Positions 6,228-57,320 of a DNA stretch of 64,000 nucleotides are shown here, one piece after another. Below the pieces are notes generated by a model that was not told where the DNA came from, ran no database searches, and saw only the letters and a program-made list of their open reading frames with translations. The position numbers and the translations under genes were made by a program. The first letter of the stretch is position 1; every line of letters starts with the position of its first letter. The stretch is from Candidatus Melainabacteria bacterium 17Bon1m (GTDB taxonomy: Bacteria; Cyanobacteriota; Vampirovibrionia; Obscuribacterales; Obscuribacteraceae). The stretch covers positions 160,001-224,000 of the forward strand of contig JAVLKG010000006.1 of NCBI GenBank assembly GCA_032128875.1, written 5' to 3'.

Positions 6228-6874
6228 TCCGTGCTTTGCCTGGTGGTTTAGGGCTTGAAGTCTAAAGATGCTTTCTGAGGTAAAACGTTCCTCAAATCTC
6301 GCGGCTTTCCAAGCAGTTTCGCCAAACTAGTAAGGTTTTGGTGATGCCCTGATGCTTCTCTCAAAGCTTCATTTGATTGGGCATTCGGGGTTTCTAACAA
6401 CTGGTTAAGTATAACACAGCGGTCCACCCAGCCTTTATTTCGGCGGTTCTTGGCCTCGGTCCAGCTTAGCCGTGAGCAGTAAGCTCTAATTTCTTTCCAC
6501 GATCGCGGTCTGAGGAATCCAATTCAACCGTATAAGTCGAAATCGATAATCTCTCACCCTCAGTTTGGCAGAGTTTTTACCTAGTTGCTGGCCTGTTTTT
6601 GCGGAACTGATCAAAGTGAATTTACTGGTTCAAGATCAGGGTAAACCCTGATCGATACGAACGACATTGGTAAGTCTCAACAAGGAATATCCGAACCATA
6701 TGCACGACAGGGTTTTGCCCCGTACGTCATAAACGACAGAGTAATTGCCGATTGTTTCAATGGCGTGTTACACACTGATAAAAGAAGACACTCGGCTGAG
6801 CGAGGCTAAAGCTCTGCTCAATCAGTTTTGATAGTCGGTTTTGACAGTCTTAGCTTCCGGGCGCGAAGTCCGAA

Positions 6875-7978
6875 TTACATCGTAGGCATCGCCAGTTCTT
6901 CTGCTAACTCGATTTTGAGCTCGTCGCCGGGTCTAACATCAACACGCTTACCTTTTTTGGAAAGCAGGACAGCAAGACCGATTGCAGCACCGATACCGGC
7001 TCCGATAACAGCACCGCCGCCAGCACCGATCGAGGATGAGCTCGAGGCGTTACCGGCAATAAGACCGATACCCAAGCCAACGCCGACCGGAATCGAAACG
7101 GCACCAACATCGATGGCAATGTCCTTGAGACCGCGCTTCGCATGGACAACACCACCGCGTGCTACCAGGTTGGCAACAATCGGGATCTGCTTATTATCAG
7201 GCGTTGTCACTGTATCGAACTTGAGCGCAACGTGACCGGAACGATTGAGAGCGCGTGGCAAAGTGATTCTGGCAATACGACCTTTGATGATCGAGCCGGC
7301 CGGAACAGCAACTTGTCCGTCGATGCTCAAATCTTCTGCCGTACGAGCAGCGAATTCGTCACCTTCTTGGCTGGTATCAGAATCAACAGCGGTGTCCATG
7401 ATGATTGGAATTTTTGTGTCTTTAGGCACGACTCGAACGAAGCCTTGCAAAACTTGCTTCTTCGTTTCTTTAGTCGTAGTGGTTGCGGCAGTAGCTTCCT
7501 TTTTCACTTCAGGATCAATCAAAGAATCAATCGGTTGGCTGGCTGAACCAGCAGTGGTGGTTGATTCGCTCGATGATGTCGCATCTGAAGCGGTGCTTTC
7601 GCTCGATGTTGCAGATGTTTCGGTCGCTTCTGCAGCAGGAGTCTTCGGAGCTTCTTCGACAATTTTGTCTTCGGTAGGTGTTTCTTCTTTTAACAATCCA
7701 CCGACTTCACCCGCAGGCTCTGATTTAGCGCCGGCAGTGTCTTCAGCCGGTGCAGCGGAAGATTCTGGGCTGTAAATCTTGAAGTTGAGCCCATCGGCAG
7801 CAAATGCTGCAGGGTGCGCAGAAAAGACGATAAGCGCGCTCATTATCACCGGCAATGCGCGATTGATCTTAAGCAAATCCGTTCTCCTTGAGTAACTTGA
7901 GACGTCTCTGTCTGTCTCTTCTGGTGGCTCGATTGGCGTGACCGTGGCAGTTGCGGCGTTTGCGCTCCTGATTTCCAT
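6875..7978 (-). CDS. Secreted protein with TrbI/VirB10-like beta domain and Gly-zipper
   Basis: Signal-like segment ending AAFA; 'TKIPIIMDTAVDSDTSQEGDEFAA...VPAGSIIKGRI'; GAVIGAGIGAAIG. Confidence 0.6.
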   Translation of the reverse strand: MEIRSANAATATVTPIEPPEETDRDVSSYSRRTDLLKINRALPVIMSALIVFSAHPAAFAADGLNFKIYSPESSAAPAEDTAGAKSEPAGEVGGLLKEETPTEDKIVEEAPKTPAAEATETSATSSESTASDATSSSESTTTAGSASQPIDSLIDPEVKKEATAATTTTKETKKQVLQGFVRVVPKDTKIPIIMDTAVDSDTSQEGDEFAARTAEDLSIDGQVAVPAGSIIKGRIARITLPRALNRSGHVALKFDTVTTPDNKQIPIVANLVARGGVVHAKRGLKDIAIDVGAVSIPVGVGLGIGLIAGNASSSSSIGAGGGAVIGAGIGAAIGLAVLLSKKGKRVDVRPGDELKIELAEELAMPTM

Positions 7979-20581: not shown

Positions 20582-20807
20582 ATAGCCAAGAACACTATTT
20601 TACTTTCTTCCGCCCGGAGTTCAATCACTGAAGCTCCAACATGTCGATAGATGCACGAATGAATAAGAATGTTTCGTATGTTTTCGATCAAACAGAAAGT
20701 TTTCAATAGCTAGGATGCTCAACAGTTCTGGCTATGAACCCTTGCCATTTGACTGAACTCGGACACTAAATACCACCTGTTGGAAACAATCGGATAAAGT
20801 TACATAG

Positions 20808-21647
20808 ATGGCAAAGTCTGGAAATATTGAACGGCTGGACACGATCGTCGTTGAGAGGGGACTCTTTGCGACGAAAGAATCCGCACGCACTGCAATCATG
20901 GAAGGCTTGGTACTTGTTGATGGACAACCGGTAACCAAGCCAGGTCACTCTGTGAAATCTCAGTCCAAGGTGGAGCTTTCACCGTCTTACCAGCCCCCTA
21001 AGTTCGTCAGCAGGGGTGGGTTGAAGTTGGAAAAGGCACTCGATGAGTTTCATATCGATCTTTCAAATAGAGTGTGTCTCGACATCGGCGCTTCTACCGG
21101 TGGTTTTACCGACTGCATGTTGAAGCGTGGCGCCAGTTATGTCTATGCTGTTGATGTCGGCTATGGGCAACTGGACTGGACTCTGAGGCAGAATGAGCGA
21201 GTCAAAGTGATGGAACGCGTCAATGCGCGCAATTTGACTCCAGCTATGTTGTATTCAGAAAGCGAAACAGCTGCGCGAGTTGATTTCGCGAGCATGGATG
21301 TTTCTTTCATATCAGCATTTAAAGTTTTGCCGTCGGTGCTGCAGTCGATGGACGAGAAGAAATCTGAGTTCGTCATTCTGGTCAAGCCGCAATTCGAAGC
21401 TGGGCGGCAGTTTGTAGGGCACGGAGGCGTTGTGCGTGACCCGGCTGTTCACCTTGATGTTTTGAATATGGCGAAAGAAAAGTCTACGGAATTAGGATTG
21501 CATGCTCAATCTGTTAGTTACTCTCCAATAAAAGGTCCAAAAGGAAACATCGAATTCTTGCTCCATCTTTCGCGTGAAAAAACGGCTGCAGATGCGGATC
21601 TTGCAGCCGTTGTTCAAAGAGCGCACTCCGAACTTACTGTTTTGTAA
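20808..21647 (+). CDS. tlyA: TlyA-family rRNA 2'-O-methyltransferase
   Basis: S4 domain, FVSRGGLKL, DIGASTGGFTD, DVSFIS, LVKPQFE, GPKGNIEF. Confidence 0.95.
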   Translation: MAKSGNIERLDTIVVERGLFATKESARTAIMEGLVLVDGQPVTKPGHSVKSQSKVELSPSYQPPKFVSRGGLKLEKALDEFHIDLSNRVCLDIGASTGGFTDCMLKRGASYVYAVDVGYGQLDWTLRQNERVKVMERVNARNLTPAMLYSESETAARVDFASMDVSFISAFKVLPSVLQSMDEKKSEFVILVKPQFEAGRQFVGHGGVVRDPAVHLDVLNMAKEKSTELGLHAQSVSYSPIKGPKGNIEFLLHLSREKTAADADLAAVVQRAHSELTVL

Positions 21648-21685
21648 GGGTGCCGGGTGTGCCTCCCCTCCAGAACGAGAGTGAG

Positions 21686-22339
21686 CTACTGTTTTGTCAC
21701 ATCACGTTTGGCGGTGGCAGAAATCGTGACAATGACTGTATCTGCTAGCTTTTGGAAAACCACTTCCGGTCGCTTGATTTGGTGATCTTTGAACGGAACG
21801 TTGAATGTGCTCTTGATCTGAATCAGATCGCAGTCTTCAAACTTGCTTTTGGTGGTTTCGCAGTTCTTGTAGAAGGTCAGATCGACAGGCACTGTCTTTT
21901 TCACAGTGACTCCGTGCAGTGCGAAGTCTCCGGTCGCCTTGATAGTGACCTTTTGCTTGTCTTTCAAAACACCCGTCACGCCTGGCTGCGACTTGACTGT
22001 AAAGGTCGCTTTGGGAAATTTTTTGGTCTCCAGAAAATTGTCGCGCATGTGCTCGTTGCGCAGCGGGATTCCAGTGTCAATCGATGCGAGGTCAACGTCG
22101 AATGTCGCGGTGAATGGCTTGGAAAGATCCATTGATTCGTCGACGCTGATTTTGCCTTTTACTGCGCTTGTTTTGCCAACGATAAGCTCAATAGGAGCGT
22201 CGGACGTAAAGCTAATGGAGTCGCGCTTTTTCTCATCGTCGACAACAAAATTCAATTGCTTTGCATTGACTGATGTCGAAGCTACGCTCAGTGCGATTCC
22301 TGTCGCTGCGATGGCAGCGAAAAATACCTTGTTTTGCAT
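21686..22339 (-). CDS. YceI-family secreted lipid/isoprenoid-binding protein
   Basis: Signal peptide; 'SIDTGIPLRNEHMRDNFLETKKFPKATF...GDFALHGVT'. Confidence 0.9.
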   Translation of the reverse strand: MQNKVFFAAIAATGIALSVASTSVNAKQLNFVVDDEKKRDSISFTSDAPIELIVGKTSAVKGKISVDESMDLSKPFTATFDVDLASIDTGIPLRNEHMRDNFLETKKFPKATFTVKSQPGVTGVLKDKQKVTIKATGDFALHGVTVKKTVPVDLTFYKNCETTKSKFEDCDLIQIKSTFNVPFKDHQIKRPEVVFQKLADTVIVTISATAKRDVTKQ

Positions 22340-22342
22340 GAT

Positions 22343-23149
22343 TTATTTACCCACTTTTCTGTCGCCCACAAACAAATTGATTTCATGGAATTGTTCGATC
22401 AATTCAATCAAGTCAGTCACTGCTGACTGGGGATTGCGCTCAGGATTCAGTTCTACACAGCGTTTTGCTAGTTGTCCATACGAGCTGACATCCGCTTCGG
22501 AAAGAAGAACCTGTGCATTGTCATCAAGTTCTACGATTCGTACACGGTGAGAAAACGGATCGCGATACATTGCAACGTGCGATTTTTCCGGCGCAAATTT
22601 TTTGCGGCTGCCTTTTCCCTCGTCAAGAAGGTCGACAATCTTTTGAATTGGATACTTATAAGTTTTTACTGCCAGAGTTGGATTCAAGACTGGACCAAGC
22701 GATACAAACGCTTCCGGATCGCTAAGCGGAGTCCTTTCAGTGACACTAACTGTAGTATCAACTTCAAGAAGCTCCATTTCCAGCCATTCGTAGTCGGCAA
22801 GCTCTGCAAGGTATGGACGCTTTTCTAGAAGGTCTGCGCAGTGCTCTCTTATGAATTGTGGAAACCGTCTTGCTGAGCTGTTTAAATGAAAGTGATCGGG
22901 TGGAAAAACGCTTACATATTTCTTGACCAGCTTTTCCCAACTGTTGCCCAGGAGCTCGGCGCAATATGGATAAATTGATGTCAGAACATCCTCATGTCCA
23001 TAGCCAATCAAGCGAGCGTAAAGCCGCGCACCATCAGCATCAAATTGATCTGATTCCAAAAGACAGCTAAGTGACTGAGCACTTTCGATCGGTTGTCTTT
23101 GCATCCAAACGGAGGTCAGTGTCTTTTCAATTTCATGCAGAGAGGACAC
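22343..23149 (-). CDS. DUF2063 MNIO partner protein (HvfC/BufC-like)
   Basis: 'ARLYARLI...LTSIYP...F..FI...PYLAELADYEWLEMEL'; overlaps the DUF692 stop. Confidence 0.85.
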   Translation of the reverse strand: MSSLHEIEKTLTSVWMQRQPIESAQSLSCLLESDQFDADGARLYARLIGYGHEDVLTSIYPYCAELLGNSWEKLVKKYVSVFPPDHFHLNSSARRFPQFIREHCADLLEKRPYLAELADYEWLEMELLEVDTTVSVTERTPLSDPEAFVSLGPVLNPTLAVKTYKYPIQKIVDLLDEGKGSRKKFAPEKSHVAMYRDPFSHRVRIVELDDNAQVLLSEADVSSYGQLAKRCVELNPERNPQSAVTDLIELIEQFHEINLFVGDRKVGK

Positions 23150-24098
23150 GAGCGTGTTTTACCTCCGCCAAATCTCTATGACCTGCAGGTGCCGCTTTTC
23201 TATCAAAGTGTTTTGGAGCTGAAGCTGCTTTTGGAGGCATTCCTGATCTCCGCACTTGAGCTGCGGCGTCACTGATTGCGCGGATTCGGTCCACTTCCAT
23301 AAGTATTTCCTCGAATTCGGGGAAATTTTGATCGCGCTCCAGCATTACGCCTTTTGCTTCCACTCTTTCCAGTACGTATTGGAGTAGTTCGAACACCGGT
23401 TCAACAACAGCAGAACCGTGCGTATCAATTACATATTCGCTGCCCTGCTTGTGACCGGCAACGTGAATCTGAACGGTTCTTTCCAGCGGGATTTGATCTA
23501 AATATTGATATGGATCAAAGCCGTGATTGAGGCTGTTTACATAAACATTGTTGACGTCTAAAAGCAGCCCGCAATCTGCTTTTTCAGCGACTTCTGCAAG
23601 AAATTGCGAGTCATTCATCTCGCAACCGGGGACGTTCATGTAATAGGAAATGTTTTCGAGAAGAAACGGTCTGCCGATCGTTTCCTGCACTCGCTTTACC
23701 TTCTCAGCGATCAATTTGATCGCTTCTTTAGAGCGGGGCAGCGGCAACAAGTCGTGCATGTAAATGCCGTCGCAGCTCGTGAAGCAGAGATGATCGCTGA
23801 ACCAAGGTGCATCAATGAGGTCGAGCAATTTTTTCAGTTTGCTCAAATACTCACTGTTGAGGTCATCTGTGCTTCCGATAGATAGATTGATACCATGCGT
23901 GACTAGAGGGAACTTGTTACGCGCCGACTCGAGTCGTTCGCGGCAAGCCCCCCCTAGTCCCATATAGTTTTCTGGCACCAACTCTAGCCAGTCGATCCGG
24001 CTTTTGCTCTCCAGTGTTTGTGTTGCTAACTCTCTGCGCAAACCCAACCCAATACCAAGATTGGGAAGACGTTTTTTCGTGTCGAGAAAGTCAGGCAT
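23133..24098 (-). CDS. DUF692 multinuclear non-heme iron oxidative enzyme (MNIO)
   Basis: GIGLGLR, ELVPENY, HGINLSIG, FSDHLC, LLENI, LLDVNNVYVN, IHVAGH, IDTHG, LERD. Confidence 0.95.
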   Translation of the reverse strand: MPDFLDTKKRLPNLGIGLGLRRELATQTLESKSRIDWLELVPENYMGLGGACRERLESARNKFPLVTHGINLSIGSTDDLNSEYLSKLKKLLDLIDAPWFSDHLCFTSCDGIYMHDLLPLPRSKEAIKLIAEKVKRVQETIGRPFLLENISYYMNVPGCEMNDSQFLAEVAEKADCGLLLDVNNVYVNSLNHGFDPYQYLDQIPLERTVQIHVAGHKQGSEYVIDTHGSAVVEPVFELLQYVLERVEAKGVMLERDQNFPEFEEILMEVDRIRAISDAAAQVRRSGMPPKAASAPKHFDRKAAPAGHRDLAEVKHARVLSA

Positions 24099-24146
24099 AA
24101 CATCTCAGGCGAACTAAAGCTGAATCCGACTGGCAAAAAGCTGATG

Positions 24147-24180
24147 AAAAAATAGCGCCACACCAATAGTGAGCGCTATT
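24147..24180 (-). terminator. Hairpin plus U-tract between precursor 1 and the MNIO gene
   Basis: Minus strand AATAGCGCTCAC-TATTGGT-GTGGCGCTATT then TTTT, starting 3 nt after the precursor stop. Confidence 0.65.
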
Positions 24181-24182
24181 TC

Positions 24183-24488
24183 TTACTTGGATTCTTTGCT
24201 TTTGCAGGCGCTTTCTTTGCCTTTGCAAGAGCTTTCTTTGCCTTTGCAGGATCCTTCTTTTCCTTTGCAGGATCCTTCTTTGCCTTTTTCTTTGCTCTTG
24301 CATGAGCTTTCTTTGCCCTTGCAGGAAGCTTCAGAGCCTTTTGCTTTCTTGGTGCTCTTTTCGGTCTTCTTTTCTACCTTTGTTGTTTCTTTGGTTTCGG
24401 TAGTTGTTTCATCAGCAGCGCGTGCGGCGCCGTTGAGGGTAAGTCCGAGTACTGCCAAGAGAGCAGCGGCCAATTGTGTTTTTTGCAT
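24183..24488 (-). CDS. Putative secreted MNIO RiPP precursor 1 (six Cys heptad repeats)
   Basis: GGAGG RBS, Sec signal ending AARA; EASCKGK ESSCKSK EGSCKGK EGSCKGK ESSCKGK ESACKSK; directly upstream of DUF692. Confidence 0.88.
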   Translation of the reverse strand: MQKTQLAAALLAVLGLTLNGAARAADETTTETKETTKVEKKTEKSTKKAKGSEASCKGKESSCKSKEKGKEGSCKGKEGSCKGKESSCKGKESACKSKESK

Positions 24489-24583
24489 GTTGTCCTCCCT
24501 GAACGTTTAGACAATGAACCCCAAGGGAGACAATCTCCCTATTCCTGGGCACATGTGGGTCATCCTAGGTCACTGTGATTAAC

Positions 24584-24608
24584 AAAAAGCCATTTGTATG
24601 TAATGGCT
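24584..24608 (-). terminator. Possible terminator after precursor 2
   Basis: Minus strand AGCCATT-ACATACA-AATGGCT-TTTT. Confidence 0.5.
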
Positions 24609-24674
24609 GTGTAAAATCGCAAACCCACTGAATACTACGGCTTAGCGGGTTTTAAGATTCTTCACAAAAGTGAG

Positions 24675-25040
24675 CTATTTCTTTTCGACCTTGGTCTCTT
24701 TCTTTACTTCGGTTTTGGAATGAGCTTCAGATGCTGCTTTTGCACCTTTCTCATCGGTTCCGCAAGAGCCTTTGCCGCATGCTGATTCTTTTCCAGCCTT
24801 CTTGGTGGTCTTTTCAGTAGCTTTTACAGTGGTTTTTGGAGCTTTCCCGTCTTCCTTGGTCGTGGTTTTTTCTTTGACTTTGGTAGTTACGGAATCCTTT
24901 TTATCGGACACTGTAGTGGTTTTGTCGGTAGTAGTCGCGCTCTTTGTTACTTCCTTATCCGCTGCCATTGCGGCGTTGGCGGTAACAAGACTGACTACCG
25001 CGGCAATGAGAGCCGCGTCGAATCTAGATTTTGCTTCCAT
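24675..25040 (-). CDS. Putative secreted MNIO RiPP precursor 2 (ESACGKGSCG)
   Basis: Likely start at MEAKSRF after GAAGGA; signal ending AMA; Lys/Thr-rich; two Cys in KESACGKGSCG. Confidence 0.78.
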   Translation of the reverse strand: MEAKSRFDAALIAAVVSLVTANAAMAADKEVTKSATTTDKTTTVSDKKDSVTTKVKEKTTTKEDGKAPKTTVKATEKTTKKAGKESACGKGSCGTDEKGAKAASEAHSKTEVKKETKVEKK

Positions 25041-25235
25041 TTTTTTTGAACATCCTTCAAATGAGGGGTGTAATCTCGAACAAGAAATATTTACCAACAA
25101 GCTTGGGTTGAGTTCAACGGCATATTATTGACCGTTAAGAAATTCGCGCAAATTCGTTTGCTCAAGTCGCGGAATACATATATATAGGTACGAAACCACC
25201 GCGGTTGTCATTGGGGGGCTGGGAGAGAAGAGCTG

Positions 25236-25919
25236 ATGGCTGGAAATACTAAGTCTGCGCAACTGAATGTTTTGTATCTGCATGGATTTGGGTCATCGCC
25301 TACTTCGCAAAAAGCGATTCGCTTCAAATCGATGCTTGAAGATAATGGCGCGCAAGTTGAAATTCCAGATTTGAATTTTCCATCGTTTAGAGAGATGACT
25401 CTCGCTACTCAACTTGATCTTCTCGATAGCAAAATAGATCAACTGTCATCTGGTATTCCGCTTGTTCTCTTTGGATCAAGCATGGGCGGTTTGCTCGCAT
25501 CACTTCTTGCTGTGAAAAAGAAACCGATCGCAGCGCTTGTTCTTCTTGCTCCGGGATTTGGAATTGCAAGACGCTGGAAAGAGTTTGTCACAGCAGAAGA
25601 ATACGAAAAGTGGCAGAAGACCGGAGAGCATCACTTCTATCATCACGCGCATGACGCGCACATGCCTTTAGGATACGAATTCGCAAGAGTGATGGAGAGC
25701 ATGCAGACAGAAGATCTTTCTATTGAAGTTCCGTGTCTTGTCTTTCACGGAATGCACGATAAGACTGTGCCGGTAGAAGAGAGTAAAAAGTTTGCGAGTA
25801 TCAACAAGACAGTCGATCTCAGAATTCTTGATGACGATCATCAACTGCTGAACTCTGTAGAACACATGTTGGTCGAGTCAAAGCTGTTTTTGCAGTCCCA
25901 TCAACTCGTGCGAGCATGA
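25236..25919 (+). CDS. YqiA/YcfP-like alpha/beta hydrolase (esterase)
   Basis: YLHGFGSSP, GSSMGG, HGMHDKTVP, DDHQL. Confidence 0.9.
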   Translation: MAGNTKSAQLNVLYLHGFGSSPTSQKAIRFKSMLEDNGAQVEIPDLNFPSFREMTLATQLDLLDSKIDQLSSGIPLVLFGSSMGGLLASLLAVKKKPIAALVLLAPGFGIARRWKEFVTAEEYEKWQKTGEHHFYHHAHDAHMPLGYEFARVMESMQTEDLSIEVPCLVFHGMHDKTVPVEESKKFASINKTVDLRILDDDHQLLNSVEHMLVESKLFLQSHQLVRA

Positions 25920-25942
25920 ATATTATCGGCAGGTAATAAGAA

Positions 25943-25969
25943 AGAGGCACCGGTAAAACCGATGCCTCT
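25943..25969. terminator. Hairpin between convergent genes
   Basis: AGAGGCACCGGT-AAA-ACCGATGCCTCT. Confidence 0.6.
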
Positions 25970-26001
25970 CAATGGATTAGGTCTTATTTCCTTTCGGAAG
26001 C

Positions 26002-26547
26002 TTAGCCCATACCGCCTTCAGCTGCCGGAGCGGCTACTTTCTTTTTGGCGGTTGCTTTTTTCTTCTTTGCTGGTGCCTTTTTAGCGCCGGCTTTCTTTGC
26101 TGGGGCCTTTTTGGCTGCAGCTTTCTTGGCGGGTGCTTTCTTTGCTGCTGCTTTTTTCTTAGGAGCGGCTTTTTTGGCTGCAGCTTTTTTAGGAGCTGCT
26201 TTCTTTGCTGCTGCTTTCTTCTTAGGAGCGGCTTTCTTAGCTGCTTTCTTCGGAGCTGCTTTCTTAGCGGCTTTCTTAGGAGCAGCTTTCTTAGCAGTGG
26301 TCTTCTTAGCTGCAGCTTTCTTAGGAGCAGCCTTCTTCGCTGCTGCCTTCTTAGGAGCTGCTTTCTTAGCAGTAGTCTTCTTAGCTGCTTTCTTAGGAGC
26401 TGCTTTCTTAGCGGTTGCTTTCTTAGCGGTTCTCTTCTTAGCGGCTTTCTTCGGCTTAGCGGTTTCAGCGCCGGCTTCGTCGGCCATAGCTGCAGCTGGA
26501 TTTACTTTCTTAGCTGCTGCTTTTCTCTTCTTAGGTTTAGCTGCCAT
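26002..26547 (-). CDS. Histone H1-like Lys/Ala/Pro-rich nucleoid protein
   Basis: Many KKAAP/KKAAA pentapeptides; GGAGG RBS upstream. Confidence 0.88.
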   Translation of the reverse strand: MAAKPKKRKAAAKKVNPAAAMADEAGAETAKPKKAAKKRTAKKATAKKAAPKKAAKKTTAKKAAPKKAAAKKAAPKKAAAKKTTAKKAAPKKAAKKAAPKKAAKKAAPKKKAAAKKAAPKKAAAKKAAPKKKAAAKKAPAKKAAAKKAPAKKAGAKKAPAKKKKATAKKKVAAPAAEGGMG

Positions 26548-30893: not shown

Positions 30894-32279
30894 TTAGCGA
30901 GCGTTTGCCAACCGCATCGACATAATCAAGTTTGGATTGCCCGCTTTGTCGGTCAACTTTCCATTCTTCATCAAGTCCCTTTCCTCAAGCCAGGACTCGA
31001 ATTCCGGCGCCGGTCTCAAATTCATCAGCGCTCTGAGAGATGCTGCGTCATGAAAACTGGTTGACTGATACGAGAGCATCACATCGTCACCCATCGGCAC
31101 ACCCATAAAATAATTCACGCCGGCAAGTATAAGCAGCATGGAAAGATTTTCTAGATCGTTTTGATCTGCATTCATGTGATTCGTGTAGCAAGCATCGATT
31201 CCCATAGGAACCCCCAAAAGCTTGCCCATGAAGTGGTCTTCAAGCCCAGCCCGTATCATTTGCCTGCCGTCTTTCAAATATTCAGGTCCGATAAAGCCAA
31301 CCACATCGTTGACGAGAAATGGATTGAATTGTCTTGCCAGTGCATAACAACGTGCTTCAAGCGTAACTTGATCCGCACCCTCGTGCGTATGCGAAGAAAG
31401 TTCGGAGCCTTGTCCTGTTTCAAAATACATGTACTGTCCACCGGCTACCCGAGCCAATTTTGAGCCGAGTGCCGTGCCTTCTTTCAACATGTCGTTGTCG
31501 ATGCCGAATGCCTTATTGCCTTTTTCGCAACCAGCAATGCTCTGAAAAATTAGTCCGGCAGGCGCACCTCTTTCAATCGCTTTTAACTGCGTTGTAAGGT
31601 GACTGAGGATGCAGTTTTGAGTCGGAAGGGATAATTCCTCGATCAAAGAATTTGTCGCCTCCAGGAGCCGAGCAACTGTGTCTGGTGTGTCATACGCAGG
31701 ATTTATTCCTATGACCGCGTCACCAACACCGTATGACAAACCTTCGTAAATCGATGCCAAAATTCCATCGAGCGAATCAGATGGATGATTAGGTTGTAAT
31801 CGAATCGCCAGTCGGCCTTTCAACCCGAGAGTCGTTTTGGCTCTTGCAATAACTCGCAGCTTCGATGCCGCCAAAACCAGGTCCATACTGGACATCAACT
31901 TGGTTACAGCGGCCGCCATCTCGCCCGTCAAGGCATTGCCGATTTTTCTCTCACTAAGAGTTTCCTCGTCTTCACTAAGCAAAAATTCCCTTAGCTCGCC
32001 GACAGTCCACGATTTGATTTTTTCGAATTGAACCTTGTCGAGATTATCGTCGATAATGCGTGTTACTTCATCACGCTCGTAAGGCATAACGGGCTCTTGT
32101 CGCAATTGTTCGAGCGTGACTTGGGCTAGAAGTTCTTTTGCAGCAACTCTTTCCAGCTCGCTCGCCGCAGCAATGCCTGCCAATTGGTCGCCAGATTTTT
32201 CCTCGTTGGCTTTTGCCAGCAAGTCTTTCAAATCGGCAAAGTGGAATTTCTTGCCGCCCGCTTGAATGGACAGACTCAT
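30894..32279 (-). CDS. eutB: Ethanolamine ammonia-lyase large subunit
   Basis: KANEEKSGDQLAG, RLQPNHPSD, YFETGQGS, VVGFIGPEY, MLSYQSTSFHD. Confidence 0.96.
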   Translation of the reverse strand: MSLSIQAGGKKFHFADLKDLLAKANEEKSGDQLAGIAAASELERVAAKELLAQVTLEQLRQEPVMPYERDEVTRIIDDNLDKVQFEKIKSWTVGELREFLLSEDEETLSERKIGNALTGEMAAAVTKLMSSMDLVLAASKLRVIARAKTTLGLKGRLAIRLQPNHPSDSLDGILASIYEGLSYGVGDAVIGINPAYDTPDTVARLLEATNSLIEELSLPTQNCILSHLTTQLKAIERGAPAGLIFQSIAGCEKGNKAFGIDNDMLKEGTALGSKLARVAGGQYMYFETGQGSELSSHTHEGADQVTLEARCYALARQFNPFLVNDVVGFIGPEYLKDGRQMIRAGLEDHFMGKLLGVPMGIDACYTNHMNADQNDLENLSMLLILAGVNYFMGVPMGDDVMLSYQSTSFHDAASLRALMNLRPAPEFESWLEERDLMKNGKLTDKAGNPNLIMSMRLANAR

Positions 32280-32367
32280 GCGCTGATTTCTCTACAAACG
32301 CATACAGAGGAAGCTCAATAGTGTATCGTATTCGGTCCCGATTCTCATAAGTTTTCGGTTTGTTTCC

Positions 32368-33105
32368 ATGAGCGCGGACTCAAAAGCCAGTAATCACGAT
32401 GCGGCGGATTTTTCGTCGAAGACTCCGGCTCGCGTTGCCGTCGGGCGCGCAGGCACTCGCCCTATAACATCTGCCTGGCTTAAGTTTCGCGTCGATCACG
32501 CGCTCGCTCGTGACGCCATCTCCAGTGAGTTGGATACGGACTTCATTCAAAAATTTGCTGTCGCCAATGGTTATCCGATCGTTCAGTCATCGGTCGCTTC
32601 TAAAGACGAGTTCATCCAATACCCCCCACGCGGAAAAGTTGTCGAGGAAAAAACACTCGCACAACTGAGGACGCAATGCTCAAGCGGCAATGATGTTCAA
32701 ATCGTGATCAGCGACGGGCTTTCAGCAAAAGCTGTGGAAAAAAACGCAGCCAATCTTTTGCCGATGATAGTCGATGGTCTGAAGATGAACAATATTTCCT
32801 GCGGACTTCCCGTTATAGTTCGCTATGGACGTGTCGCTGTGGGCGATCAAATTGCATTCGCCCTCACGTCACGAGTGGTCATCAACCTCATTGGCGAGCG
32901 CCCCGGATTATCTTCCGCAGAAGGGCTCTCTGCCTACATTACGTACAATCCATCGCCGCAAACAATCAGCTCTGATCGAACTGTTGTTTCCAACATTCAC
33001 GAGCGCGGAACTCCCGCTGTCGAAGCTGGCGCTTACATTGTCCGATTGGTCAAAACTATCTTGGAAAGAAAAGTATCTGGCGTAGAACTTCAGAAGTTGA
33101 GCTGA
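32368..33105 (+). CDS. eutC: Ethanolamine ammonia-lyase small subunit
   Basis: TPARVAVGRAG, DHALARDA, ISDGLSA, LIGERPGL, VSNIH. Confidence 0.95.
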   Translation: MSADSKASNHDAADFSSKTPARVAVGRAGTRPITSAWLKFRVDHALARDAISSELDTDFIQKFAVANGYPIVQSSVASKDEFIQYPPRGKVVEEKTLAQLRTQCSSGNDVQIVISDGLSAKAVEKNAANLLPMIVDGLKMNNISCGLPVIVRYGRVAVGDQIAFALTSRVVINLIGERPGLSSAEGLSAYITYNPSPQTISSDRTVVSNIHERGTPAVEAGAYIVRLVKTILERKVSGVELQKLS

Positions 33106-33117
33106 GTCGATTCAACC

Positions 33118-34629
33118 ATGACGACTTTTCTCAGTGTTGGAATCGATGTGGGTACAACCTCCACCCACCTTACGTTTACGCGATTGACTGTGGTCAATGC
33201 TGCGCTTGTAAACCAATCGCCGCTTCCAAAAATCGAAAGCCGCGAGATCATATTTCAAAGTCCCATTCATTTGACTCCGCTTACCTCAGACGGCGTAATC
33301 GATGCTCAATCGGTTTTCAAACTAATCGAAGCCGAGTATGAACGTGCTGAAATAAAACGCGAAGACATAAAAGTCGGAGCGGCGATAGTGACTGGTGAGA
33401 CAGCGCTGAAACGCAACGCCCGTGAGGTTGTTGAGCAACTTTGCCTGCTGTCCGGTGATCTCGTTGCTGTCAGCGCTGGTCCACATCTCGAAGCTGTTCT
33501 TTCCGCTCGCGGATCAGGTGCAGTTGCAGCGTCAGCGCAAAATTGCTCGACAATTTTGAACATCGACATCGGTGGTGGAACGATGAATTTGGCGCTCTAT
33601 AAAAATGGCGCGTTGATTTCTACTCACTGTCTTGGAATTGGTGGTAGATGTTTTCAGTTCAAACATGGACAGAGCGCGGATTCCGAAGAATTTGAAGTAA
33701 GTGCTATCAACGAGAGTGGATTTTTCTATCTGCCTGCTGGTTTCAAAATTGGCGAAAAGTTGAAATGCGAGCAGCTGACTCGAATTGCAAATTTGATTGC
33801 ATCAGATGTGGTCGATTTCATAAATCAGAAAGGCGACGACACGAAGTTGAAAAATCTTCCTCTCACTACGTTCGAACCTGACTGGTCTTCGCCTGATGAA
33901 ATATGGCTCTGTGGCGGCATTGCAGAGTTTCTTCTGGATGAAAAACTGAATCGTTTCCAATTCTGTGACATGGGTGGTCTGATAGCTGACGCATTGCTTT
34001 CAAACTTGAAAACCGCCAAATTGAATTTCAAAATTCCTCAGCAGCCGATTCGCGCGACAGTAACCGGCGCCGGAATGTATTCGATGCAAGTGAGTGGATC
34101 AACGATCGATTTTGATATCGAGCATCTGCCGTTGCGCAATGTCCCCTTGCTGAGACCGTTTGAAGACAAAAGTCAATTATCGGATGAAGACGAAATCGTG
34201 GACAGAATAAAATCAGCAATCGAGCGCATTGATCCTGAAATGCGAGTTAACACAATTGCATTCGAGTTACCCTCGCTCGAAAAATCTCTCGATTACAATT
34301 CGCTGAAGCAAATCGCTCACGGGTTGGCAGCTGCAGCAATTAAAATTGCTAGATTGCGTCCTTTTGTTCTAGTCTTGCAGGAAGACTTGGGAATGGCTCT
34401 GGGGCAGCTTTTCCGGCTTTCGAGTCAGGAGATTCTTAGGCCAGAAGCCGAGCCAAATTCCGGCGACAAAAAAAACGCTGTCGACTCTTGTCCATTGATT
34501 GTTTTAGACGGTATTACAACCACTGATGGCGATTTTATTGATATTGGTAAACCGGTGAGTTTGGATTCGAACGGAATCGCGCGCACGGTTCCTGTCGTGT
34601 TGAAAACGCTAGTGTTCGGAAACCCATAG
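33118..34629 (+). CDS. eutA: Ethanolamine ammonia-lyase reactivating factor
   Basis: SVGIDVGTTSTH, IVTGETA, AGPHLEAVLSARGSGA, DIGGGT, IRATVTGAG, GDFIDIG, PVVLKTL. Confidence 0.93.
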   Translation: MTTFLSVGIDVGTTSTHLTFTRLTVVNAALVNQSPLPKIESREIIFQSPIHLTPLTSDGVIDAQSVFKLIEAEYERAEIKREDIKVGAAIVTGETALKRNAREVVEQLCLLSGDLVAVSAGPHLEAVLSARGSGAVAASAQNCSTILNIDIGGGTMNLALYKNGALISTHCLGIGGRCFQFKHGQSADSEEFEVSAINESGFFYLPAGFKIGEKLKCEQLTRIANLIASDVVDFINQKGDDTKLKNLPLTTFEPDWSSPDEIWLCGGIAEFLLDEKLNRFQFCDMGGLIADALLSNLKTAKLNFKIPQQPIRATVTGAGMYSMQVSGSTIDFDIEHLPLRNVPLLRPFEDKSQLSDEDEIVDRIKSAIERIDPEMRVNTIAFELPSLEKSLDYNSLKQIAHGLAAAAIKIARLRPFVLVLQEDLGMALGQLFRLSSQEILRPEAEPNSGDKKNAVDSCPLIVLDGITTTDGDFIDIGKPVSLDSNGIARTVPVVLKTLVFGNP

Positions 34630-53920: not shown

Positions 53921-55003
53921 CTACATTCTGTAAATCAGTTGCTCTTTACTAATAACTGCATTTGATTCAGCTGCGGCGATTTTTTCTTTCACCAGGTCAT
54001 GATGTGGGGAAAGCTTGCAGACAGGGTCGGCTTGAGCTGCATCACCCGCGAGGAGAAACGCCTGACAGCGGCAGCCGCCTAGGTCTTTCTCTCGAAACTC
54101 GCATGTACGGCAAGGCTCGACCATCCAATCGAAACCGCGAAAAGCGTTGAACGCCGGCGACTCCTTCCAAATCCATTCCAGTGTGTTTTCTTTGGTAGAT
54201 GGAAAAGATAATGTTTTGATCGCGCTCGCTGCAAGGCATGGATAAGCAGTTCCATTTACTGAAATAACCATATGTTGGCTTGCCCAGCCGCCCATGCAGG
54301 GTTTTGGTGAACTTTCAATATAGTCGCCGATTATCCAACTGAGGTGCATTTTTCCCTGCAATTGATTTTTCTTTGTTTCATAAACAACTAGTGCGTCGCT
54401 CATTTGTTGTTGCGTCGGCAAAAGGTGGTCCATATTAGCGGCAGCAAAACCGTAATACTGTGTATTCGCTAGCTCAAGACGTTTTACGCCGAGGCTATGC
54501 GCCAGATCTATTATTTCGGCAACCTCATGAAGGTTGTGGCGATGCAGTACCACATTCAGTGCTAAAGGTAATTTCGAATTCGCGACCAATTTTAAAGCAG
54601 CTAATTTTTGCTGTTGCGCATCCCGGCCTGCAATCAATTGCGCGGTTTGCGAACTGGCTGATTGTATGCTGATTTGTATACTTTCTAGCCCGCAACTAAT
54701 TAACTCTGATACAACCATTTCAGTTAGCCCGATACCGCTTGTAATCAAATTGCTGTAGATGTCGTGTTTTTTCAAACGCTCGATGATTCGTGGTAAACCT
54801 GCATAGGCAAGAGGTTCTCCACCGGTAAGATTAGCCTGCACCACTGAGAGCTTTGCTGCCTGATCGATGATTGAAAGCCATTCTTCAACAAGCAGTTCAT
54901 TATCGGCGCGCACCAGTTCCAGAGGATTGGAGCAGTACAGGCACCGCAAAGGACAACGATGAGTCAGCTCCATCGTCAGGGTGTATGGATTAGAAACCGT
55001 CAT
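53921..55003 (-). CDS. pqqE: PQQ biosynthesis radical SAM enzyme
   Basis: ELTHRCPLRCLYCSNP, ELANTQYYG, PKPCMGGW, GGCRCQAFLLAGDA..DPVC. Confidence 0.96.
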   Translation of the reverse strand: MTVSNPYTLTMELTHRCPLRCLYCSNPLELVRADNELLVEEWLSIIDQAAKLSVVQANLTGGEPLAYAGLPRIIERLKKHDIYSNLITSGIGLTEMVVSELISCGLESIQISIQSASSQTAQLIAGRDAQQQKLAALKLVANSKLPLALNVVLHRHNLHEVAEIIDLAHSLGVKRLELANTQYYGFAAANMDHLLPTQQQMSDALVVYETKKNQLQGKMHLSWIIGDYIESSPKPCMGGWASQHMVISVNGTAYPCLAASAIKTLSFPSTKENTLEWIWKESPAFNAFRGFDWMVEPCRTCEFREKDLGGCRCQAFLLAGDAAQADPVCKLSPHHDLVKEKIAAAESNAVISKEQLIYRM

Positions 55004-55290
55004 TGTTTTAGCTCGATCCAGCCGCGAGACAGCGCGTCCATGAGAAATTCCGCAAGGTCTCTGTGCAATGTGTCATCTTCGTAGCGTACCGCAAGCTCAG
55101 AATAAATCATCTCTATGGTGCGATTGCCGTCGACTAGCTCAAGAACTTCCGACGCCGAATGATTGAGTTTGACGATGCATTCAGGCATGAGCAGTAGTTT
55201 GCATTGCCTTTCTTCGTCGTCTTTTAAACGGACGCCATGCGCCATCTGGAGGACTGATTCTTTGACAATGTTTTCTAGTCCGTCTGCCAT
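55000..55290 (-). CDS. pqqD: PQQ biosynthesis peptide chaperone
   Basis: 'LLMPECIVKLNHSASEVLELVDGNRT...RGWI'; position in operon. Confidence 0.93.
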   Translation of the reverse strand: MADGLENIVKESVLQMAHGVRLKDDEERQCKLLLMPECIVKLNHSASEVLELVDGNRTIEMIYSELAVRYEDDTLHRDLAEFLMDALSRGWIELKQ

Positions 55291-55295
55291 TCAAA

Positions 55296-56021
55296 TCACC
55301 GCACAACCTTGGAGGCGCATTCGTTTCCTTGAATCGCGTCCAGCATCGACCACAATACATCGCATTTGAATTCTACGGCTTTTAGCGCCTGAAGCTGTTT
55401 TTCCGGCGTGTTTGCTGCTGCTAAAACAATGGACAGTCCGTGTTCGGAATCTCGCGGTGCTTGACTCAGGCGATTGCGAAAGTATGTTAGACCGTCCTTG
55501 TCGATCCAATGATAATGCCTTTCTATGACTTCGATTCGATAGCTAACGAGTGTGGGTGCAAAGACTTCAGTGAGTGATGATGCGACAGCTAGCCACCATT
55601 CATTGTTGCGGCAATAATTTACGTACGCGTCAACCGCGAATATCACGCCCGGCAAAAAATGTTTTCCGTCGAGAAGCTCGTTGCGACTGATTCCGGCTGC
55701 TTCTGCAAACTTCAACCAAGCGTGAATGCCTCCATCATCTTCGGCGCGTCCGTCGTGGTCGACAATGCGTTCGCGCCATTTGATGCGGTCGGCTCGTTGA
55801 GGGAGTTTCGACAGAACAATGCCGTCTTTGATTGGCAAGCATTTTTGATAATAAAAACGATTTGCGATCCATCGCTGCATCTCGTCTTTGCTCAACAAAC
55901 CCTCGTGCATGCGGGCGTGAAACGGATGTTTGTCGTGATACTTCTCTTCCCCGATTTTTTTCAGGCGCGCGACAAACTGCTCTTCGCTTAAAAGTTGACG
56001 GCTCGACTGTAAATCAATCAC
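55296..56021 (-). CDS. pqqC: PQQ synthase
   Basis: YHDKHPFH, NRFYYQ..PIKD, RIVDHDG, FAVDAYV, ASSLTE, FKCDVLWSMLD; GTG start overlaps the pqqB stop. Confidence 0.95.
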   Translation of the reverse strand: MIDLQSSRQLLSEEQFVARLKKIGEEKYHDKHPFHARMHEGLLSKDEMQRWIANRFYYQKCLPIKDGIVLSKLPQRADRIKWRERIVDHDGRAEDDGGIHAWLKFAEAAGISRNELLDGKHFLPGVIFAVDAYVNYCRNNEWWLAVASSLTEVFAPTLVSYRIEVIERHYHWIDKDGLTYFRNRLSQAPRDSEHGLSIVLAAANTPEKQLQALKAVEFKCDVLWSMLDAIQGNECASKVVR

Positions 56022-57090
56022 GAATCTTGTTCCTGCAAGAGTTAACCGATTTGCTCGTTGCAAGCGAGAACGGCGCGCCGCTGCAAACAGACATTCCGTC
56101 GACTGCAATGTGGACTCCGGCGGTTTCGACCGCCCGTCTTTCCGTGGAATTATCGCGCAAAATCGGGTTGCTGTTGTTGATATGAGTGAGGAATTTTGCT
56201 CTTGCTTTCACCTTTTCAAGTTTTGCCAAAATGCCGCCTGCGCCGCTCAGTGGTAAGTGCCCCATCGTCTCGGCGTCAGGGGCGTTGCCGTCCAATGCCT
56301 GCAGCTCATTTGATGTATAAAAAGTACCGTCGACGAGTACTGTGTCGCAGCCGTCGAGTAGCCAGAGGAGTGCTTCGTCCCAAGCGCCGATTTGAGGGGC
56401 GTAGGCAATGGCGTCGGATGTGTCGTGTTTTGGCTCAGGCTCGACTTGGTTTCCCTCTGCCTCGACGTGCTTTCCGTTTAACTTTTCTTGGCTGCTTTCG
56501 AACTTCAGACCGATGACGGCGTCAGCGGTTTGGTTCGTGTTGGCGGATTGTTCCTCGGTTTGGGCGCCAATTTTCGAGGCGCCCACGTATCGCGGTTGTC
56601 TATTGCTGAGGCCCGCCGCTGTTACCGTCATAGAGTCGCCTAGCTTGAATGGAACGCCTGGCACAATCGTGAAAAATTCGAGATGGGCGTAGTTTTTCAG
56701 GACTGCCTTAACGGGGAAGGCTTTTTCCATCAAGCCCAGAACCGACGCTGTGGCATAGACCCGCAGACGTGAGCCTTCGCGCAGATTAATTAGTCCCATC
56801 GTATGGTCAAGCTCACCATCAGTGAGGATCACAGATTTAATAGGACTATTTCGAACAGGTCCATTCGGCGGCGGGTGGAGCTCGCAATGTCGTGCCAGCT
56901 GGTGTCTGAGGTCGACGCTCGGATTGACTATTGCCCAGGACGTTTCCCCGTTTTCCTCATACTCGACCGCCAAGGAGTCGGTCGTGCGCGCGCTCTCTGG
57001 GTTGTTTCTTGCAAAATTGCAATTTTCGCAGCCGCAATTCCATTGCGGACAGCCGCCACCGGCGCCCGTGCCCAGAACAATCAGGCGCAC
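56014..57090 (-). CDS. pqqB: PQQ biosynthesis protein B
   Basis: LGTGAGGGCPQWNCGCENC, LTDGELDHTMGLINLRE, VDGTFY, MGH, HINNSNP. Confidence 0.95.
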   Translation of the reverse strand: MRLIVLGTGAGGGCPQWNCGCENCNFARNNPESARTTDSLAVEYEENGETSWAIVNPSVDLRHQLARHCELHPPPNGPVRNSPIKSVILTDGELDHTMGLINLREGSRLRVYATASVLGLMEKAFPVKAVLKNYAHLEFFTIVPGVPFKLGDSMTVTAAGLSNRQPRYVGASKIGAQTEEQSANTNQTADAVIGLKFESSQEKLNGKHVEAEGNQVEPEPKHDTSDAIAYAPQIGAWDEALLWLLDGCDTVLVDGTFYTSNELQALDGNAPDAETMGHLPLSGAGGILAKLEKVKARAKFLTHINNSNPILRDNSTERRAVETAGVHIAVDGMSVCSGAPFSLATSKSVNSCRNKIRD

Positions 57091-57092
57091 GT

Positions 57093-57164
57093 TTACCTCT
57101 TGTGAATGTAGGCTGTCACCTCAGCGCCCGCGCTGATGATTTCGTAGCTGGGTTTTTCCCACAT
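57093..57164 (-). CDS. pqqA: PQQ precursor peptide MWEKPSYEIISAGAEVTAYIHKR (not in ORF track)
   Basis: Translated by hand; W.KP...E-V-T-A-Y (ExxxY) motif, GGAGG RBS, stop 2 nt before the pqqB start. Confidence 0.95.
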   Translation of the reverse strand: MWEKPSYEIISAGAEVTAYIHKR

Positions 57165-57320
57165 AAAGCCTCCAATTAATTTCTGCCCTGTTAAATTCGA
57201 ATGGGCGGATTCACATATGGTTTCAATCAGGATCATGCACGCGTTGCGCCAAACTAAACTATCATTTGTAGATTAAAGGCCAATCTATTTAGATTAAACG
57301 GTGATTGACAAGGGGGCGCC

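Follow-up and report, generated by a model that had tools for sequence, protein, structure and literature searches.

The locus and its genes

We analyzed a 64,000-nucleotide stretch of the genome of Candidatus Melainabacteria bacterium 17Bon1m (GenBank assembly GCA_032128875.1, contig JAVLKG010000006.1, positions 160,001 to 224,000; hereafter the window). The organism belongs to the Obscuribacterales within the class Vampirovibrionia, and its assembly comprises 7.55 Mb in 35 contigs and is 93% complete. The subject is a group of five genes, all on the minus strand, encoding two small secreted proteins (preA and preB), an MNIO (DUF692) enzyme, a DUF2063/PME1 partner protein and a YceI-family lipocalin (Table 1). 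An earlier note, made from the letters alone, had described five co-oriented minus-strand genes in this order and had read them as a cluster for a peptide that is made by the ribosome and modified after translation (RiPP). The listing of open reading frames (ORFs) agrees with that description: the MNIO and DUF2063 genes overlap by 17 nt (23133-23149), and a 3-nt gap (22340-22342) separates the DUF2063 stop codon from the ATG of YceI. The N-termini of preA, preB and YceI appear by eye to run from a basic to a hydrophobic segment and then to a putative AxA-type cleavage site, between AMA and A, ARA and A, and VNA and K, respectively. The gene arrangement is not a matter of chance, because the whole order recurs in related genomes. 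The cluster is real, it was correctly interpreted in the earlier note, and the kind of system to which it belongs is known.

Table 1. Coordinates of the features of the locus, followed by those of a separate gene cluster in the same window.
Feature	Position in window	Strand	Remarks
preA	24675-25040	-	121 aa; Sec-type signal peptide (residues 1-26) and 95-aa mature part
preB	24183-24488	-	101 aa; Sec-type signal peptide (residues 1-24) and 77-aa mature part
MNIO (DUF692) enzyme	23133-24098	-	321 aa, without signal peptide; PF05114
DUF2063/PME1 partner	22343-23149	-	268 aa, GTG start, without signal peptide; PF09836
Secreted YceI-family lipocalin	21686-22339	-	217 aa; signal peptide (residues 1-26); PF04264
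Terminator-like hairpin and U-run after preA	24588-24608	-	Consensus scan; putative terminator
17-bp hairpin and U-run between preB and MNIO gene	24147-24184	-	Possibly a partial terminator
Conserved non-coding region upstream of preA	25088-25210	-	Window aligned with 8 same-genus loci
TGACAA-18 nt-TATATA	25210-25181	-	Promoter-like, upstream of preA
TTGAAC-18 nt-TAAATA	25117-25088	-	Promoter-like, upstream of preA
Dyad AACGG-N11-CCGTT	25136-25116	-	Between the two promoter-like elements; kept in 9 sequences of the genus
Conserved element upstream of preB	24524-24582	-	27 aligned sequences
PqqB (Lactamase_B_2)	56014-57090	-	Side observation, PQQ cluster
PqqC	55296-56021	-	Side observation, PQQ cluster
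PqqE (radical SAM/SPASM)	53921-55003	-	Side observation, PQQ cluster

The MNIO and its DUF2063/PME1 partner

Profile searches upheld the DUF692 and DUF2063 assignments, for which the earlier note had proposed such a check. The MNIO matched PF05114 (MbnB_TglH_ChrH) at 340.6 bits (cut-off 25), its residues 15-275 covering positions 1-261 of the 263 in the model, and the partner matched PF09836 (DUF2063) at 31.7 bits (cut-off 27.2). Among the NCBIfam equivalogs, the MNIO scored 312.8 bits against BufB (NF050167, cut-off 310), marginally above the threshold, and 305 bits against HvfB (NF003818), below the cut-off of 360; the partner scored 72.2 bits against HvfC (NF050145), below the cut-off of 142. 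An AlphaFold2 model of the partner (mean predicted local distance difference test, pLDDT, 84.7) suggests a helical N-terminal domain and a C-terminal domain resembling a RiPP recognition element (RRE). A Foldseek search with this model ranked gonococcal PME1 first (3DEE; E 8.4e-7, template modeling (TM) score 0.69 by target), followed by TglI (8HI7_A), and the predicted C-terminal part weakly resembled RRE proteins of the PqqD and lasso B1 kinds (probability 0.92-0.97, E above 0.4); the partner sequence itself found nothing among solved structures at E 0.01. By these BufB, HvfB and HvfC scores and the predicted fold close to 3DEE, the pair belongs to the bufferin/HvfBC type that the earlier note had named.

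The best solved relative of the MNIO is 3BWW from Histophilus somni (full-length alignment, E 9.8e-61), with which the motifs THG, SDHL, EN, DVNN, HxAGH, DTHG and ERD all align. 3BWW is 72% identical to HvfB, in which the site-3 residues N175, D242 and H244 are required for activity (bioRxiv 10.64898/2026.07.17.739211); by numbering offset rather than structural overlay, these correspond to the DVNN motif and to D225/H227 (in IDTHG) of the window enzyme. In the related enzyme FonB, D249 is the catalytic base, R15/R16 touch the Glu at position 1, and F250 sets selectivity for the residues around the Cys, this position being occupied by Phe in the Lys-Cys group and by Asp in the Cys-Lys group of enzymes (PMC13097082). 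At numbering offsets of +6 and +7, FonB R15, R16, D249 and F250 map onto R21, R22, D256 and Q257 of the window enzyme, the latter two within E254-R-D256-Q257. Since both Arg residues are kept, the enzyme fits the Glu at -3 of the preB units described below, and its selectivity site holds Gln257, a third residue type beside the published Phe and Asp.

The genome encodes a second MNIO (PF05114, 98.4 bits; region 40243-40878 of contig C11, corresponding to 1408-2286 on the minus strand of locus L081), with an 80-aa acidic ORF (L081 1173-1415) directly downstream. We considered it as an alternative enzyme for preA and set it aside, as neither a DUF2063 gene nor a signal-peptide precursor lies beside it.

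Two dissimilar precursors

The preA ORF opens at a TTG codon (24675-25100), and the ATG at 25040 is the start conserved in 15 orthologues. Its mature part is Lys/Thr-rich and contains only two Cys (88 and 93), within ACGKGSCGTDEKGAKAA. The pair sits in ACGKGSCG, with each Cys followed by Gly and with the CxxxxC spacing of the HvfA type. The 15-residue core CGKG[SA]CG[TV]DEKGA.AA is invariant in all 15 orthologues while identity elsewhere falls to 34-41%, indicating strong selection on the core. By contrast, preB has six Cys (56, 63, 74, 81, 88 and 95), each in a G[KS]E[GSA][SA]CK unit with Lys following in all six cases; the spacing is 7 residues in 4 of the 5 neighboring pairs and 11 between Cys 63 and 74. 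The gene has a strong ribosome-binding site, GGAGG, 6 nt 5' of the ATG. Aromatic residues are absent from both mature peptides, which are basic, with a pI of 9.3-9.5, and abound in Lys, Thr and Ser.

A search of a large protein collection returned 87 preB homologues, of which all named ones are annotated as hypothetical and none has a Pfam domain; their named sources are exclusively metagenome-assembled genomes (MAGs) of Obscuribacterales or Cyanobacteria. These homologues contain from 1 to 8 Cys per protein, and 274 of their 331 neighboring Cys pairs keep the 7-residue spacing. Across 399 Cys sites, Lys is found at +1 in 375, Ser before the Cys in 348, and Glu or Asp at -3 in 371. Neither precursor of the window matched a Pfam family at E 0.01, nor DUF2282 (bufferin 1) or any NCBIfam precursor family at E up to 10; the best NCBIfam leftovers were CopL_fam (20.2 bits, cut-off 40) and chance-level hits. 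By the definition of the Cys-Lys group, namely Cys-rich precursors with several Cys-Lys dyads beside an MNIO-PME1 pair, preB belongs to it and preA does not.

In the order Vampirovibrionales, the corresponding loci carry one precursor type, in which an opening ...KCG[AKET]G.CG... is followed by additional units of the form HKCG or KCA. The HvfA-family repeat model NF050137 (cut-off 19.5) was passed by the precursors of three related loci, L077 (53.8 bits), L047 (22.4) and L070 (22.2), the first two from Vampirovibrionales and the third from a genome labelled Deltaproteobacteria/Myxococcota. From these motif comparisons we infer that preA may be the counterpart of the older HvfA-like/KCG-type precursor of Vampirovibrionales, cut to one CxxxxC unit, and that preB may be a newer paralogue with a Cys-Lys heptad.

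Relation to characterized systems

MNIO-PME1 clusters are among the commonest bacterial peptide-modifying systems and have so far been studied almost only in Pseudomonadota. All characterized ones install 5-thiooxazoles and bind Cu, the oxazolin structure having been revised accordingly; the class has been named captophorins, with DUF2282, Lys-Cys (EGKCG) and Cys-Lys precursor groups (PMC13097082), and hundreds of unclassified signal-peptide precursors adjoin such MNIOs (PMC12452194). The window locus shares with oxazolin (HvfABC of Haemophilus influenzae), fontiphorin and gonophorin the combination of an MNIO with a DUF2063/PME1 partner. As in the Lys-Cys/EGKCG captophorins, the precursors are disordered, repetitive peptides exported by Sec that place a Glu three positions ahead of each Cys, and the MNIO retains both N-terminal Arg. 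The CxxxxC spacing of preA is that of the KCGExKCG unit of the oxazolin type, whose HvfA-family model recognizes the related precursors L077, L047 and L070. There are also differences: in preB, Lys follows rather than precedes the Cys and the units repeat every 7 residues instead of every 5; in the MNIO, the catalytic Asp is followed by Gln instead of Phe and the score stays below the HvfB cut-off; and YceI replaces DoxX.

The locus resembles bufferin 2 (BufA2B2C2 of Caulobacter vibrioides) in its Cys-Lys dyads, its Sec signal peptides and the lack of an operon DoxX gene, and its MNIO passes the BufB equivalog threshold; however, Buf2 is a folded small protein with 6 Cys, whereas preB is a low-complexity heptad repeat, and Cys-Lys MNIOs are reported to have Asp where the window enzyme has Gln (PMC11626156, PMC13097082). 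Nearly identical hexads are found among the CK-style repeats in Dataset S2 of PMC13097082 (for example, the rows keyed by the partner-protein accessions WP_091056841.1 and WP_220165998.1), which combine a signal peptide with runs of [SG]CK[GA]K[DE] next to an MNIO-PME1 pair. Their period is 6 (SCKGKD, SCKAKE), in contrast to the period of 7 and the fixed Glu at -3 in preB, and none of these repeat peptides has been characterized. The strings SCKGKE and CGKGSCG have no occurrence in the accessible text of Dataset S2, and Dataset S1 of the same paper includes Vampirovibrio MNIO-PME1 pairs. The names Melainabacteria, Vampirovibrio and Obscuribacter are absent from the supplement text of PMC12452194, its supplementary PDFs lying outside the search, and a literature search for Melainabacteria, Obscuribacter or Vampirovibrio with copper or RiPP gave nothing relevant by titles and abstract openings.

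The cluster is less novel than the earlier note suggested. The heptad repeat is matched by no family model, but Cys-Lys repeat precursors have already been catalogued and preA keeps the CxxxxC spacing of HvfA. Outside supplementary PDFs and bioRxiv supplements, which the search did not reach, we did not find in print the preB heptad family, the pairing of a CG and a CK precursor under one Gln-site enzyme, or the link to YceI. The locus adds a heptad repeat peptide that family models do not recognize, and its putative Cys-Gly and Cys-Lys substrate pair beside a single Gln-site enzyme offers a ready test of how MNIOs choose their Cys.

Conservation and distribution

To compare related loci, we used contigs from one genome per species; 187 of 207 candidate stretches were confirmed, and 79 loci were kept (denoted by L numbers), in which the cluster genes were counted by tblastn with the window proteins. 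The MNIO relatives come from MAGs labelled Melainabacteria, Obscuribacterales or Vampirovibrionales, the nearest being 84-97% identical. A DUF2063 gene directly follows the MNIO gene in 62 of the 79 loci. A preB-like gene lies 5' of it in 30 by tblastn, and in L004 and L029 by ORF reading; a preA-like gene was recognized in 15 loci by ORF reading and alignment. YceI belongs to the cluster in 31 loci, 30 times downstream and once (L058) upstream. Vampirovibrio chlorellavorus (L061) is among those with an MNIO-PME1-YceI arrangement. The earlier note had held that precursor-like ORFs unconserved beside orthologous MNIOs would speak against its reading; both preB-like and preA-like genes recur there. 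Flanking genes for an alpha/beta hydrolase and a TlyA-like protein are retained within the family, so that the locus looks vertically inherited rather than mobile.

A survey of 301 genomes of the class (denoted by G numbers, families by f codes) revealed an MNIO match at E 1e-30 or better in 159. Within the family to which the window belongs, a group of non-photosynthetic relatives of cyanobacteria, nearly all genomes have the system (91 of 96); it is frequent in f4 (27/30), f9 (19/25) and f8 (9/12), and at this threshold it was not found in the 98 genomes of f6, another family of the class, whose listed genomes measure 1.6-2.0 Mb. The absence of an O2-dependent enzyme from this whole family would, at a guess, fit an anaerobic lineage.

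The ERD motif was located in 78 loci. In 37 of them the next residue is Gln, and in 31 of these 37 Lys is the commonest or joint commonest residue after the precursor Cys. Of the other six, five have no candidate precursor passing the filters and one (L028) has other residues. Among the 41 non-Gln loci, 21 have candidate precursors, and Lys is the commonest residue in none of them, Gly or Ala following the Cys instead. Because the Gln loci essentially form one clade, we regard the link between Gln and Cys-Lys as a consistent pattern and not as independent evidence. Locus L036, which was filtered out of the residue count, combines ERDD with KC-type units, indicating that the published Asp rule is not universal.

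Two further observations concern paralogues. In a same-genus genome (G057, main MNIO 97% identical), a second MNIO (51% identical) adjoins a second YceI of the subfamily discussed below (contig C6, 3342-5598); no such second MNIO-YceI cluster was seen in the window's own assembly. Some paralogous MNIO matches in Obscuribacteraceae (e.g., G218, G230, G246 and G112) lie in open frames of 600-850 aa and may be MNIO-DUF2063 fusions.

The YceI-family lipocalin

The fifth gene product matched PF04264 at 76.9 bits (cut-off 23.7), and its AlphaFold2 model (pLDDT 83.4) predicts a YceI lipocalin-like barrel, for which Foldseek returned 1Y0G, 1WUB and 7BWL (E around 1e-11, TM 0.77-0.81 by target, 17-21% identity). 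With known YceI lipocalins (E. coli 1Y0G, TT1927b 1WUB, BcnA/BcnB and the X158 domain 2X32/2X34) it shares the 8-stranded barrel, the R-x-E-H-x-R-D-x-F motif region and secretion. It departs from them in its low identity to solved members and in its partner, an MNIO-PME1 pair rather than the usual genomic partner of YceI genes, cytochrome b561 (PMC9113575). In the subfamily alignment, a C160-C170 pair is confined to the Obscuribacterales copies. A second, canonical YceI is encoded elsewhere in the genome and scores 185.6 bits against 76.6 for the cluster copy, which is a divergent paralogue forming part of a well-conserved subfamily. Five DoxX genes are likewise present in the genome, all of them away from the cluster.

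With a threshold of E 1e-25, the YceI subfamily was detected in 58 of the 301 class genomes (f1 35/96, f9 18/25, f8 3/12, f5 1/19, f4 0/30 and f6 0/98). When the tables were compared by eye, 51 of the 60 listed YceI matches, from two orders, shared a contig with an MNIO match no more than about 2 kb away. Five were not near an MNIO (G056, G014, G071, G134 and one of two in G152), and four could not be judged, one lying at a contig end (G244) and three lacking a listed MNIO place (G191, G090 and G138). The distribution among genera is patchy, with complete presence in g6 (6/6) and g10 (5/5). As YceI was not found in many MNIO-bearing genera, it is an accessory and not an essential or core component.

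Within Obscuribacterales, a preA-type gene accompanies YceI at every locus whose upstream sequence is long enough, and the loci that lack YceI have no such gene. Over 61 long-flank loci, YceI and a CG-type precursor occur together in 25 and are both missing in 27, with the precursor alone in 6 and YceI alone in 3. On a quick tree, from which L038, L055, L064 and L079 were left out owing to stops or short length, this association comprises one independent contrasting pair on well-supported branches and four on all branches; with 1-4 contrasts only, it is explained equally well by shared ancestry. When YceI was modeled together with residues 60-121 of preA, which hold its core, the prediction returned scores of 0.00, 0.00 and "no answer", and it was used neither for nor against binding.

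The earlier note had placed YceI where such clusters often have DoxX, and one of the 79 related loci (L062) indeed has DoxX at that position. Other loci have AhpC (L073) or thioredoxin there (L041, L042, and L040 together with a 2Fe-2S thioredoxin-like protein). The last three loci (around 6350-7280) represent one Melainabacteria clade, in which an ERDF-type MNIO-DUF2063 pair is followed by the thioredoxin gene; in L040 a gene for a 2Fe-2S thioredoxin-like ferredoxin comes after the thioredoxin, and immediately upstream there is a short ORF containing KCGEGQCG.

Isoprenoids, ubiquinone-8 among them, are ligands of YceI proteins, which have been linked to redox and antioxidant functions in the periplasm (PMC9113575, PMC8981238), and DoxX is dispensable for bufferin modification and function (PMC11626156). 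On the strength of this literature, we infer by analogy that the cluster YceI may have a redox or protective accessory role. A tie between YceI and MNIO, DUF692 or DUF2063 clusters was not found in the searchable literature, with supplementary PDFs (including the co-occurrence Table S1 of PMC13097082) and bioRxiv supplements out of reach; a search for YceI with "bufferin" gave nothing related, judged by titles, and YceI is absent from the supplement text of PMC12452194 and PMC13097082, apart from their supplementary PDFs. A YceI lipocalin as a well-conserved fourth gene may bear on the unexplained role of DoxX in such clusters.

Non-coding elements and expression

Each precursor gene is followed by a candidate hairpin. 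The region after preA (24575-24680) folds at -26.3 kcal/mol (z -2.85), and that after preB (24100-24185) at -27 kcal/mol (z -2.83). Upstream of preA, the conserved region contains two promoter-like elements with a dyad between them, which in locus L004 shows a compensating double change. From the alignment, these elements may act as promoter and operator, and the dyad could be an operator or a 5'-untranslated-region hairpin. For the palindrome-like TACCTATATATATGTA upstream of preA we also weighed a metal-regulator site, but the simpler explanation is the -10 region of a conserved promoter-like element. In the conserved element upstream of preB, the 27 sequences are invariant as TTAA in the columns of TTAAT (24582-24578) and as TA..AT in those of TAGGAT (24567-24562), and the palindrome AGGGAGAttgTCTCCCT (24540-24524) is limited to the genus. 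This element may be preB's own promoter.

Four RNA-labelled sequencing runs of one sample contain all sampled words of the stretch. Each covers 20600-26100 with one contig, 13-64 kb long and matching the window without a difference, so they are uninformative on transcription and were discarded as expression evidence; these runs probably hold DNA or are the source sample.

A proposed captophorin-type pathway and its alternatives

We consider it probable that the locus is an Obscuribacterales RiPP operon of the captophorin type, similar to those for bufferins and oxazolin, with the following course, in which Cys modification and metal binding are predicted from family membership. In the cytoplasm, the MNIO and its PME1 partner would use O2 and a di- or tri-iron site to convert precursor Cys into 5-thiooxazoles, with a loss of 4 Da for each. 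There would be two substrates, preB with six E-[GS]-[SA]-C-K heptad units and preA with one CGKGSCG unit. The Glu at -3 of each unit would lie against R21/R22 of the MNIO, and Gln257, adjoining the catalytic Asp256, may accommodate the Lys after the Cys. Since both precursors carry Sec signal peptides, the modified peptides would be exported and cleaved, and in the periplasm or envelope the mature peptides might serve as highly basic, disordered Cu(I) chelators against copper stress, by analogy with bufferins, oxazolin and fontiphorin. The hairpins 3' of each precursor gene may ensure that more peptide than enzyme is made. YceI would be a translationally coupled secreted lipocalin and a dedicated accessory of this cluster type in Vampirovibrionia, in place of DoxX, thioredoxin or AhpC. 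Its role would most likely be lipid- or quinone-linked, periplasmic, and redox or protective, and it is not expected to be needed for Cys modification.

Several observations weigh against this proposal. Against the NCBIfam precursor families, neither preA nor preB has a match at E up to 10, the HvfA/EGKCG models NF050137 and NF050188 included; the earlier note's statement that the two dissimilar substrates differ in their core motifs from known examples is thereby borne out. The MNIO barely reaches the BufB threshold and misses that of HvfB, and the partner misses that of HvfC. Published Cys-Lys MNIOs carry Asp at the specificity site, where the window enzyme has Gln. FonBC left substrates with a charged residue after the Cys unprocessed (PMC13097082), so that a single enzyme acting on the Cys-Gly sites of preA as well as the Cys-Lys sites of preB cannot be taken for granted. 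The links of Gln to Cys-Lys and of YceI to the cluster lie almost wholly inside single clades, and with the window protein as query the YceI subfamily was not found in many MNIO-keeping Obscuribacteraceae genera, such as g2 (0/6), g9 (0/14) and g14 (0/8). In the 64-kb window we saw neither a metal regulator nor a sigma/anti-sigma pair, nor any gene for copper resistance, and the long identical contigs deprive the RNA-labelled runs of any value as signs of transcription.

The strongest alternative, which we regard as a real but minority possibility, concerns only YceI, which might be a mere passenger, that is, a co-transcribed periplasmic stress lipocalin without a functional tie to the peptides. 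This would agree with the failure to find it in many MNIO-bearing genera of the same family, with the three f8 genomes (G056, G014 and G071) in which the match lies away from the MNIO by eye, and with the dispensability of DoxX, the usual fourth gene, for bufferin function (PMC11626156). Against it stand the 3-nt gap to the DUF2063 gene, the divergence of this paralogue in a genome with a canonical YceI elsewhere, and the position beside an MNIO of 51 of the 60 listed matches, from two orders.

Somewhat less likely is the idea that only one peptide is a substrate of the MNIO, preA being a leftover of the older KCG/CG type, no longer modified by the Gln257 enzyme, or being handled elsewhere. 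The sharp separation of Cys-Gly from Cys-charged sites by FonBC (PMC13097082) argues for this, as does the different specificity-site residue in the clades with CG-type and CK-type precursors; yet the preA core has stayed invariant in 15 of 15 orthologues despite diverging flanks, and the sole other MNIO of the genome (98 bits, contig C11) lacks a DUF2063 gene and a signal-peptide precursor alongside.

We find it about equally doubtful that the peptides serve a purpose other than copper detoxification, such as metal acquisition, handling of another soft metal, or protection of the envelope from redox or oxidative stress. Pointing this way are the absence of a copper gene or regulator nearby, the vertical conservation of the locus beside housekeeping neighbors, and the redox nature of the accessory proteins encoded at the YceI position in other loci; the authors of PMC13097082 also describe physiological roles and metal specificity as still open. 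Against it, Cu binding is common to all characterized members, and so is induction by copper, gold or oxidative stress (PMC13097082, PMC11626156). Finally, it is highly implausible that the small ORFs are ordinary unmodified Lys-rich secreted proteins or non-genes: although their sequences are of low complexity and match no family, both recur immediately upstream of orthologous MNIO genes, keeping intact signal peptides and invariant Cys motifs while varying in repeat number, and preB has a strong ribosome-binding site.

Returning to the captophorin-type operon, its parts can be joined into a bolder, speculative scheme, which we think unlikely to hold in full. Here YceI would be a dedicated periplasmic partner of the thiooxazole peptides, loaded with a quinone or isoprenoid and moving electrons, as DoxX or thioredoxin would elsewhere, either to reduce Cu(II) or to keep thiooxazole thiolates reduced. 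YceI would be kept in Obscuribacterales only where preA is kept, and the Gln-site MNIO would be bispecific for Cys-Gly and Cys-Lys. If this were true, the operon would document how duplication of a precursor, together with one active-site change, gave rise to a new repeat substrate.

Other features of the window

Elsewhere in the window, an apparently complete gene cluster for pyrroloquinoline quinone (PQQ) biosynthesis occupies 53921-57164 on the minus strand (Table 1). In addition to its PqqB, PqqC and PqqE genes, it contains a small ORF ending in ...AEVTAYIHKR inside 57093-57236, which we take to be PqqA-like, and an ORF of 96 aa (55000-55290) that is presumably PqqD, as its size suggests; both were assigned by eye rather than by a family model. 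Genes for ethanolamine ammonia-lyase lie at 30897-34626, with eutB on the minus strand and eutC and eutA on the plus strand. Closer to the peptide locus, positions 26002-26547 of the minus strand encode a 181-aa Lys/Ala-rich protein made of AAKKAAPKK-type repeats, which scored 28.7 bits against the chlamydial histone-like family HC2, below the cut-off of 40.

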